Made by a program: the position numbers and the translations under genes. A DNA stretch of 64,000 nucleotides from Candidatus Kaiserbacteria bacterium (GTDB taxonomy: Bacteria; Patescibacteriota; Minisyncoccia; Phycocordibacterales; Phycocordibacteraceae): assembly GCA_963813065.1 (NCBI GenBank), contig CAWEXP010000010.1, positions 7,276 to 71,275 on the forward strand, written 5' to 3'. Positions 46,854-48,067 of this stretch are shown here, piece after piece. Position 1 is the stretch's first letter. Every line of letters starts with the position of its first letter. The notes beneath the pieces are model-generated. The model was given only the letters and a program-made list of their open reading frames with translations. It searched no databases and was not told the origin of the DNA.

Positions 46854-46909
46854 AGACCGCGCCAGCTCTGCTGGCGCGGTCTTGACATATTACTACGTTC
46901 GTGTATCTT
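46854..46909 (+). promoter_or_regulatory. rplL terminator hairpin fused to a TTGACA-N16-TATCTT promoter
   Basis: AGACCGCGCCAG-CTCTG-CTGGCGCGGTCT hairpin (46854-46882), whose last bases start TTGACA (46882-46887). ACGTTCGTG precedes the -10 TATCTT (46904-46909). Confidence 0.55.
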
Positions 46910-46969
46910 ATATGAGGATGTTTTGCGACATTCCGTCGCTTCAATAGAGGCCAAAGGAGGGCCAATACA

Positions 46970-47503
46970 ATGCGTACACTCTTTAGCGGCATAGCCGCTC
47001 TCGTGCTTGCCTTTACTCTCGGCGCGTGTGGTGACAGTTCTGGCCCGACCACGATTCAATCCGTCGGCCAGATTACCGTGGACGGCACACAAAACCGTTC
47101 ACAAGCCATTTTTCTAGGCCGTTATGATTGGGCCAACAGCAACATCAATGACGCGAATTTCCCTGCGCACCCGCAAGGCATTCGCGCCGAAGCAATGGTG
47201 CTCGTTGCATTCAATCGCTCGATTTCGTCCGAGAATGCAGATGCCGAAATACGAGCCCGCGGCTTCCGCGCAGCGAATCTTGATGAGTGTCTCGCATATG
47301 GAGCGGCAGTGGCAAGAGCCAGAGGGATTTACAACCTCGCTCCGCCGAGTAACCCGATCGTGTGTCTTGGGCAGTCGGCGCAGGTTGACGGCAATCGCTG
47401 CGTCCCTGGGTTCTGGAGCGGCTTTGGCTACTGGAGGCTCGACCTCGGCCGCTGGGCGAGTGACTGGCGCTCCGACTTTCGCTTCCTCGCCGCTCGCACT
47501 TAG
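46970..47503 (+). CDS. lipoprotein, second DGR-type target protein
   Basis: Signal peptide with lipobox (LAFTLGAC). The C-terminal 43 aa are encoded by VR2 (SAQVDGNRCVPGFWSGFGYWRLDLGRWASDWRSDFRFLAART). Confidence 0.6.
   Translation: MRTLFSGIAALVLAFTLGACGDSSGPTTIQSVGQITVDGTQNRSQAIFLGRYDWANSNINDANFPAHPQGIRAEAMVLVAFNRSISSENADAEIRARGFRAANLDECLAYGAAVARARGIYNLAPPSNPIVCLGQSAQVDGNRCVPGFWSGFGYWRLDLGRWASDWRSDFRFLAART
47375..47500 (+). repeat. DGR variable repeat VR2
   Basis: ~126 bp homologous to TR2 (47851-47976). ~22 mismatches, ~18 at positions where TR2 has A. Shared 3' end TCGCTTCCTCGCCG. Confidence 0.75.
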
Positions 47504-47561
47504 TCCTCACGATCCTCTGTCCTTTTGCAAGGGACACTTAGGACTTAGACACTTTGAACTT

Positions 47562-47592
47562 CCGCGCGGCTTCCCAGCCGCGCGGTCTTTGT
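47562..47592 (+). terminator. GC hairpin + T-rich run 60 nt after VR2
   Basis: CCGCGCGGC-TTCCCA-GCCGCGCGG hairpin followed by TCTTTGT. Confidence 0.5.
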
Positions 47593-47850
47593 ATAAAATA
47601 GATCCGACAGGTGAATAGTCACCGGCGGTTACGGCTTCCGGCTACCTGTCCGCAACCTCTGTTGCCAGAATTCGAGCGGCCACGGCTTCTCGGAGCGTGT
47701 GGCGGAGATTGTCCAAAATCGAAGGACTTGTTGGTGCGAGATGCTGGCGGATTAGAGCTTTTTGTAGCTCGAGATCCCAAACAAGATTCAATCCGGAGAT
47801 CAGCCGCAAGGCTTTCTATGGATGGTGGCATGGATGGCATCTCGTACTCA

Positions 47851-47976
47851 TCGGCGCAGGTTGACGGCAATCGCAACGTCCCTGAATTCTGGAACGACAA
47901 CGGCAACTGGAAGCTCGACCTCGACAACTGGGCGAATGACTGGAACTCCGACTATCGCTTCCTCGCCGTTCGCAAC
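47851..47976 (+). repeat. DGR template repeat TR2 (no adjacent RT)
   Basis: Adenine/AAC-rich copy encoding NRNVPEFWNDNGNWKLDLDNWANDWNSDYRFLAVRNN. Followed by a strong GC hairpin plus T-run at 47993-48036. Confidence 0.7.
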
Positions 47977-48067
47977 AATTATTGATTTACCGCGCGACCC
48001 CGGCGATTTTCGTCGGGGTCGCGGGTTTTTGCTTTTATCTGCCGAAGCGACTACACTACCTCGGTCT

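Follow-up and report, generated by a model that had tools for sequence, protein, structure and literature searches.

A template and variable repeat pair 24 kb from the window's only reverse transcriptase gene in a Candidatus Kaiserbacteria contig is probably a satellite module of a diversity-generating retroelement

We studied a 64,000-nucleotide stretch of a Candidatus Kaiserbacteria bacterium (GenBank assembly GCA_963813065.1, contig CAWEXP010000010.1, positions 7,276 to 71,275 of the forward strand), which we call the window. It contains two units related to diversity-generating retroelements (DGRs). DGR 1, at 21-23.5 kb, includes genes for a reverse transcriptase (RT) and for the accessory protein Avd. 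Module 2, at 46882-48033, has a target gene that ends in a variable repeat (VR2), followed by a template repeat (TR2), and is the subject of this report. Positions are those of the window, and L-numbers are labels of relative loci or contigs that we compared with it. R1 is a structured RNA with helices P1 to P3 that we describe below. The features of module 2 are:

46882-46909, + strand: promoter-like site of target gene 2 (TTGACA, 16 nt, TATCTT), with 10/12 consensus matches
46970-47503, + strand: target gene 2, encoding a 177-amino-acid lipoprotein (lipobox LGAC) with a C-type-lectin/FGE-like fold and the variable repeat at its C-terminus
47375-47500, + strand: VR2, the last 42 codons of target gene 2, changed at 18/30 adenine sites and 3/96 other sites
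47562-47592, + strand: terminator-like hairpin and T-run past target gene 2 (10-bp stem with 9 GC pairs, then TCTTTGTATA)
47571-47599, + strand: putative promoter of the template RNA (TTCCCA, 17 nt, TAAAAT), a weak consensus match
47607-47850, + strand: structured RNA just upstream of TR2, with a 5' domain (47607-47675) and R1 (P1, P2, P3 and single strands; 47676-47856)
47755-47770, + strand: 16-nt hairpin insertion in the P2 loop (GAGCTttttgtAGCTC), lineage-specific and absent in L002 and L011
47851-47976, + strand: TR2, with 30 adenines, many of them within AAC/AAT codons
47993-48033, + strand: 3' stem-loop and T-run of the template RNA, terminator-like and at the position of the Avd-binding stem-loop of other DGRs

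The target-2 open reading frame (ORF) is intact. The AlphaFold 2 model of its product (predicted local distance difference test score, pLDDT, of 87) matches C-type-lectin and FGE folds, including the DGR variable protein TvpA. The stem after TR2 is GC-rich, 14 bp long (47993-48023), and followed by GGTTTTT. Among the related cassettes that we compared, sequence conservation starts about 10 nt downstream of the putative template-RNA promoter.

VR2 and TR2 are offset by 476 nt, with 350 bp between the copies. Across the 126 nt of the repeat, 18 of the 30 adenines of TR2 are altered in VR2, versus 3 of the 96 other sites (Fisher p=3e-11). The changes hit the first and second positions of AAC, AAT, GAC and AAG codons and leave the reading frame of the ORF undisturbed up to its stop codon. 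The same adenine-biased pattern of mismatches is seen in L002 (20/21), L011 (15/16) and L118. TR1, the template of DGR 1, has no significant similarity to TR2; the longest matches are 9- to 13-mers. An earlier reading of this DNA, made from the letters and their ORFs and which we call the sequence-only reading, had reported a repeat pair at these coordinates with this gap, about 18 of some 22 mismatches with A in the downstream copy, a template rich in asparagine codons and followed by a GC hairpin and T-run as TR1 is, no relation between the two templates, and no RT or avd gene within about 10 kb. This observation is correct in each detail that we checked: we count 20 mismatches over 47375-47499, with A in the downstream copy at 18 of them, both hairpins were located, and the search for RT and Avd is given below.

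DGR 1 has the standard layout of a patescibacterial DGR (target 1 with VR1, spacer, TR1, antisense avd, RT):

21112-21729, + strand: target gene 1, with two frameshifts here (~21376 and ~21637-21640) and VR1 at ~21618-21727
21896-22048, + strand: R1 structured RNA upstream of TR1 (covariance model, 109.8 bits, E=7.6e-22)
22043-22152, + strand: TR1, with 9/10 mismatches at TR adenines and one indel
22151-22519, - strand: avd accessory gene, antisense to TR and RT (Pfam PF22296 bAvd, E=5.2e-13)
22556-23536, + strand: DGR RT, whose frame is split by one extra nucleotide at 22756 (once repaired, it matches Pfam RVT_1 with E=5.8e-27)

The hairpin after TR1 has a 7-bp stem (22165-22185), then TTTT (to 22189). 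Target 1 aligns in three frame pieces to an intact 205-amino-acid homologue in L017, and the RT is 65-74% identical to RTs of about 330 amino acids from Kaiserbacteria, Adlerbacteria, Paceibacteria and relatives. One independent Logan contig, L093, corresponds to 21721-22901 of the window and differs from it only in lacking the extra A at 22756. Its RT reads through, so an intact RT allele exists.

We searched the six-frame translation of the whole window with profile hidden Markov models (HMMs) for RT and Avd. The RT model matched once, in two frames (22195-22761 and 22634-23533), and the Avd model matched once (22154-22543, minus strand). There was no further match to RT or Avd in the 64 kb even at E ≤ 10, so, apart from this pair, the 25 kb before TR2 and the 16 kb after it are free of RT and Avd. 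The RT at 22556-23536 sits 24.3 kb from TR2 and belongs to the DGR clade of RTs, and it is not part of module 2. Similarly, DGR 1 has an avd gene and module 2 itself has none.

To characterize the RNA context of the templates, we took 80 loci around RT homologues from species-representative genomes. About 60 of the 80 have an adenine-biased repeat pair, in the order VR, about 450 nt, TR, antisense avd and RT, and all of these ~60 have a conserved structure in the 150 nt upstream of the TR. This structure, R1, comprises the hairpins P2 and P3, conserved single strands (GAUACAG and GCAGUGGCA.GGAUGG), and a long-range helix, P1, that closes immediately before the TR. We tested covariation on a MAFFT alignment of 60 RT-adjacent copies that was not fitted to the structure. 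Standard pairs fill 95.7% of the paired cells, versus 72% if columns are shuffled and 32-51% if the partners are slid by 1-3 columns; there are 329 double (both-sided) changes, versus 98 and 31-74, respectively; and 20 of the 21 pairs covary. This covariation indicates that R1 is a real structured RNA.

We then used a covariance model of R1, trained on the 60 RT-adjacent copies from other genomes, with no sequence from the window. Across the 843 kb of the 80 RT loci it has 73 matches, each directly upstream of a TR, and one per locus except in L044 and L072. In the window it has exactly two: 21896-22048, before TR1, and 47676-47856, before TR2. The match before TR2 covers all 154 model positions (89.8 bits, E=1.6e-17). 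A shared candidate RT-recruitment element in the flanks of TR1 and TR2, which the sequence-only reading had raised, is thus present. It came to light only with the family-level covariance model. Direct alignment of the two VR-TR spacers, which we tried as evidence for a shared element, scored 20 versus 16.2±2.2 for shuffled sequences, and 89 of 622 genomic controls scored as high, so we set it aside. A tblastx match had suggested a small ORF shared by the spacers; we rejected this because indels of 16, 1 and 2 nt break the frame and the helices covary.

Within the TR2-type RNA, 13 pairs show compensatory changes among three cassettes. The hairpin insertion in the P2 loop has compensatory changes as well, with GAGCT..AGCTC in the window versus GGACT..AGTCC in L118 (880-896). 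On the other side of the template, a segment of RNA with a minimum free energy of -12 kcal/mol or below lies within about 15 nt of the 3' end in 63 of the 66 TRs of the clade, TR2 included. Most of these segments are a visible GC hairpin and T-run of variable sequence. Many DGRs have an Avd-binding stem-loop just past the TR (Handa et al., bioRxiv 10.1101/2023.10.23.563531). With R1 upstream and the hairpin and T-run on its 3' side, TR2 has the complete RNA context of this RT clade's templates. R1 may serve in RNA binding and priming, and the template transcript probably has roughly the boundaries implied by the feature list; both flanking elements, R1 and the stem-loop, are presumably required by RT-Avd.

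R1 appears to be undescribed so far. No Rfam 15 family matched R1 in the window or in 11 canonical loci. RT-10 had no match at E ≤ 5, and none at the gathering score in the 11 canonical loci. The only trace is a weak match to RT-7 at 47664-47714, in the 5' domain of the TR2 RNA (RF03028; 20 bits versus a gathering score of 116.8, E=0.019), with no equivalent on the TR1 side. This match may be due to chance.

The close family of target 2 has 12 members, whose C-terminal 45 residues vary at the codons with template adenines. Four diverged copies have the whole of module 2 without an adjacent avd-RT:

Window copy: the reference; an HTH (helix-turn-helix) gene follows the module
L118: target 66% identical to the window's; identical junction, where the TR hairpin leads into the HTH gene as in the window
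L002: target 52% identical; different neighbourhood, on a 960-kb contig
L011: target 55% identical; followed by a promoter, a conserved structured leader, and the first codons of a target-1 homologue

More distant relatives of target 2 (30-40% identity) are ordinary RT-adjacent targets (L098, L103, L104 and L117), and three other distant relatives (L095, L094 and L097) are RT-adjacent with an inverted RT. Because of these RT-adjacent relatives, module 2 probably goes back to a DGR whose own avd-RT was lost. The tandem seen in L011 is probably the older arrangement, and the simplest history is that module 2 was later relocated in the lineage of the window and L118 and in that of L002. A comparable tandem is found in L044 (254-6966), where two targets with two tandem R1-TR modules are followed by a single avd-RT; its targets are unrelated. 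Some members of the target-2 family are in various stages of decay. L099 has R1 and a truncated TR; in L008 the VR is frameshifted and the TR is missing; around the L006 target, no TR repeat occurs within 2 kb; and L107 and L108 have the target gene only, with no R1, RT or TR in the flanks. A scan of GTDB species representatives for the target-2 family gave no match, and neither did a search of Joint Genome Institute (JGI) metagenomes for the exact two-block DNA pattern of the TR2-type RNA.

We propose that module 2 is an RT-less satellite DGR module and that the RT-Avd at 22.2-23.5 kb most likely serves it in trans; we consider this proposal probable. Module 2 would consist of a gene for a C-type-lectin lipoprotein that ends in VR2 and of a separately transcribed template RNA, made up of R1, TR2 and the 3' stem-loop with its U-run. 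An RT-Avd encoded elsewhere would bind this RNA in trans; the likeliest source is the pair at 22.2-23.5 kb, which has its own TR1 and target 1. The RNA would be copied to adenine-mutagenised cDNA, which would replace VR2 by retrohoming. As to how this arose, a DGR of the target-2 type probably lost its avd-RT while a target-1-type DGR with an RT of the same clade was adjacent to it or elsewhere in its genome, and it then depended on that RT. The RT at 22.5 kb is our candidate because it is the sole RT in the 64 kb, because R1 is common to both templates, and because of the tandems in L011 and L044.

Several points weigh against this proposal. The case for the 22.5-kb RT as the enzyme that reads the TR2 RNA is indirect. 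The window is 64 kb of a 173.6-kb contig in a larger genome, so a second RT could lie outside it, and three sampled genomes (CAYGEV01, MFLL01 and CAYHDT01) have two RT loci of the clade. The RT and target 1 carry three frameshifts here, of which only the one in the RT is shown to be absent elsewhere. Of target 1, the L011 tandem shows no more than the first five codons. As for use of the template, the polarised evidence for homing in the window's lineage (described below) amounts to two sites. The window and L001, 2 SNPs (single-nucleotide polymorphisms) apart over ~6 kb outside the rRNA end, have the same VR2; four assemblies of nearly one strain agree in the L002 VR; and the 90% protein clusters of the target-2 family are all single-member.

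The best of the alternatives is that module 2 is a displaced part of a separate DGR and is served by a different RT and Avd encoded outside the window. The incomplete coverage of the contig and the genomes with two RT loci would both allow this, and the distant relatives of target 2 each have an adjacent RT. However, more than 16 kb would still separate such an RT from TR2, so action in trans would still be needed. Also, module 2 of L011 abuts the start of the target-1 gene without an intervening avd-RT, none of the called genes within ±10 kb of the L002 module is annotated as an RT, and both R1 elements of the window fit one model. We therefore think that an outside RT is unlikely. The sequence-only reading had posed a choice between the 22.5-kb RT acting in trans on both templates and the remains of a second DGR, with its RT lost or encoded beyond the window. 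Each side was partly right: the shared R1 and the L011 tandem add to the first and the probable loss of an avd-RT to the second, and it is the identity of the serving RT that we infer.

Is the template still in use? The second alternative is that module 2 is an inactive fossil, whose RT was lost and whose VR2 is frozen, so that the adenine bias records past activity only. The identical VRs among the assemblies of the window's strain and of L002 fit this view, as do the decay stages in the family and the frameshifts of DGR 1 in the window's assembly. To address this, we compared the cassettes of the window, L002 and L011 region by region at the nucleotide level. Identity is 62-67% in the coding sequence outside the VR (40-51% at third codon positions), 41-53% in the unstructured spacer from the stop codon to the RNA, and 44-58% in the 60 nt past the TR, as compared to 75-81% in the 245 nt of RNA upstream of the TR and 79-84% in the TR itself. 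So a fossil would have to explain why the RNA and TR are 75-84% identical when third codon positions are 40-51% identical, why the RNA helices keep their pairing via compensatory changes, and why the target ORF is intact. These comparisons indicate that the RNA scaffold and the TR are under purifying selection in lineages without an adjacent RT.

The VRs also follow their own templates. Each of the four VRs differs from its own TR at 17-22 of the 27-32 adenine sites and at 1-3 of the 94-99 other sites. Between lineages, any two of the four TRs differ at 8-16 non-A sites, and of the lineage-specific non-A differences, 63 of 66 are mirrored in the cognate VR. Ordinary gene conversion would erase the differences at A sites, which persist, so this argues for repeated transfer from TR to VR after the lineages split. 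The window and L118 have the RT-less junction in common, so the RT-less state predates their split. By comparison to outgroups, two changes in the TR (at 47887 and 47946) are derived in the window's lineage, and both are in VR2. Because these changes reached VR2 after the RT-less junction arose, retrohoming seems to have gone on without an adjacent RT. Module 2 may still be active today. That module 2 is a remnant, as the sequence-only reading had suggested, is right insofar as an avd-RT was probably lost, but a dead remnant would not be expected to keep its scaffold, to show selection, or to have VRs that track their TRs, and we consider the fossil explanation quite improbable.

Finally, an ordinary partial gene duplication, with the adenine bias due to chance or composition, has the existence of a direct repeat as its sole support and is already refuted by the test for adenine bias, by the recurrence of the pattern in L002, L011 and L118, and by the clade-specific R1 exactly upstream of TR2; its probability is close to nil.

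If module 2 is a satellite that is served in trans, then the broader picture might be as follows, which we put forward tentatively and with some doubt. Satellite modules (promoter, target, R1, TR and 3' stem-loop) would be relocatable, self-contained units that one RT-Avd serves in trans. R1, TR and the 3' stem-loop would be the minimal cis-acting RNA of this clade, as only these stay conserved in the detached copies, and R1 would be a previously undescribed, topologically permuted counterpart of Sp, the structured RNA that lies downstream of the template in the DGR of Bordetella phage BPP-1. We speculate that R1 holds the priming and RT-binding functions of Sp. The detached modules amount to a natural deletion experiment, pointing to R1, TR and the 3' stem-loop as the RNA parts that travel with the template. 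They suggest that RT-Avd recognises the shared scaffold rather than the sequence of the template, which bears on the reprogramming of multi-template DGRs.

A small genome could then diversify several unrelated surface proteins with a single enzyme. In these ultra-small Patescibacteria, one retroelement enzyme may diversify two or more unrelated proteins (we detected no relation between target proteins 1 and 2 by BLASTP), of which at least one is a predicted surface lipoprotein. Since surveys of DGRs usually search for repeats around the RT gene, detached templates would be missed and the number of diversified proteins per genome undercounted. The R1 covariance model locates template repeats that have no RT gene nearby.

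We also made some observations about the surroundings of the two units. The promoters of target 1 and target 2 have a motif in common, TTGACA-N10-TTCGTGTATC (20929-20954 and 46882-46907). The 64 kb holds this motif only at 20929 and 46882, with 0 occurrences expected, and a relaxed form precedes target genes in L002, L008, L011, L021, L054, L064, L084, L096 and L105. The common motif may reflect co-regulation, or it may merely be the strong-promoter consensus of the lineage. Target 1 also has a 5' leader of about 160 nt that is conserved and looks structured (20955-21111 in the window, 1160-1310 in L011, and ~4400-4560 in L017). Its stem, TTCGCCcTAGCG / CGCTATGGCGAA, has compensatory changes in L017. 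The leader has no match in Rfam, and module 2 has no equivalent long leader.

Within DGR 1, the last codons of avd overlap the TR1 hairpin (22165-22185), and a stretch of ten G lies between the starts of avd and RT (22530-22540). One of the frameshifts in target 1 lies inside VR1, at an AA dinucleotide of the template (AA -> GTA). This may reflect a true off-frame variant, or else mixed VR variants that gave an artefact in the consensus. The L093 contig ends at the VR1 boundary; we considered this as a sign of heterogeneity in VR1, but it is uninterpretable and we dropped it.

Module 2 lies directly downstream of rplJ-rplL (45838-48033 for the genes and module together), and L099 (55-2242) has its distant target-2-family gene, R1 and shortened TR directly upstream of rplJ-rplL. 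Ribosomal protein genes inside DGRs of the candidate phyla radiation (CPR) were noted by Wu et al. 2018 (PMC5758913). The DGR of L044 adjoins a tRNA gene and a large serine recombinase, which suggests that it is an integrative mobile element. Further downstream in the window, the 23S rRNA (50173-54081) is 3909 nt long, versus a 2925-nt model, with large insertions (~1 kb). This fits a Patescibacterium, as such insertions are typical of the group. A 42-nt repeat (76% identity) occurs near the 3' end of the 23S gene (53318-53359) and upstream of the 5S gene (55151-55192).

How does module 2 compare with known DGRs? In its sequence, it has the defining features of a DGR except for its own RT and Avd. 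The units in the window share with the BPP-1 DGR (mtd-avd-TR-brt), the prototype, what looks like adenine-specific transfer from TR to VR, a C-type-lectin target with a C-terminal VR, Avd, an RT of the DGR clade, and a stem-loop that closely follows the TR. BPP-1 has its large structured RNA (Sp, Rfam RT-10) on the 3' side of the template, between TR and brt, and everything is in one cassette (PMC5737381, PMC6182149). Here, in contrast, the large structured RNA is upstream of the TR, avd is antisense, and a terminator-like hairpin follows the TR almost directly. Module 2 also lacks its own RT and Avd, and no Rfam family, RT-10 included, matches.

The closest systems are the DGRs of Patescibacteria ("DGR clade 2" of Roux et al. 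2021, PMC8144416; the "CPR set" of Wu et al. 2018, PMC5758913). The RT has its 65-74% identity to these, and the locus at 21-23.5 kb has the same layout as the ~60 loci (target/VR, R1, TR, antisense avd, RT). These DGRs usually have a single target, whereas module 2 is a second module, with an unrelated TR, 25 kb from the window's only RT. Just 1-2 of 73 RT loci have a second R1 within 6 kb (L044 and possibly L072).

The sequence-only reading had called one RT with two non-homologous TRs unusual. This was too strong, as surveys list both DGRs with several TRs and loci that are diversified in trans. About 20% of DGRs with multiple VRs have several TRs, and Stenotrophomonas sp. SKA14 has two (Yan et al. 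2019, PMC6642488); L044 likewise has two modules and one RT. As in module 2 and DGR 1, these have distinct TRs, each with its own VR, and one RT. The difference is that their TRs are in one cassette beside the RT, whereas the TR of module 2 is detached and has persisted so in several lineages. Remote targets and incomplete loci (in Treponema denticola; in Legionella; in Thiohalocapsa PB-PSB1, PMC10907252; and non-adjacent targets, PMC5758913) are thought to be diversified in trans, and module 2 resembles these in that it would be diversified at a distance by machinery encoded elsewhere in the genome. The usual remote element, though, is a VR that matches the TR of a complete DGR, whereas module 2 brings its own TR and scaffold, so that only the proteins would be shared. 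What sets module 2 apart from known DGRs is that it is a remote unit with its own template and scaffold that has persisted in the detached state, and whose use can be argued from the evolution of its sequence.

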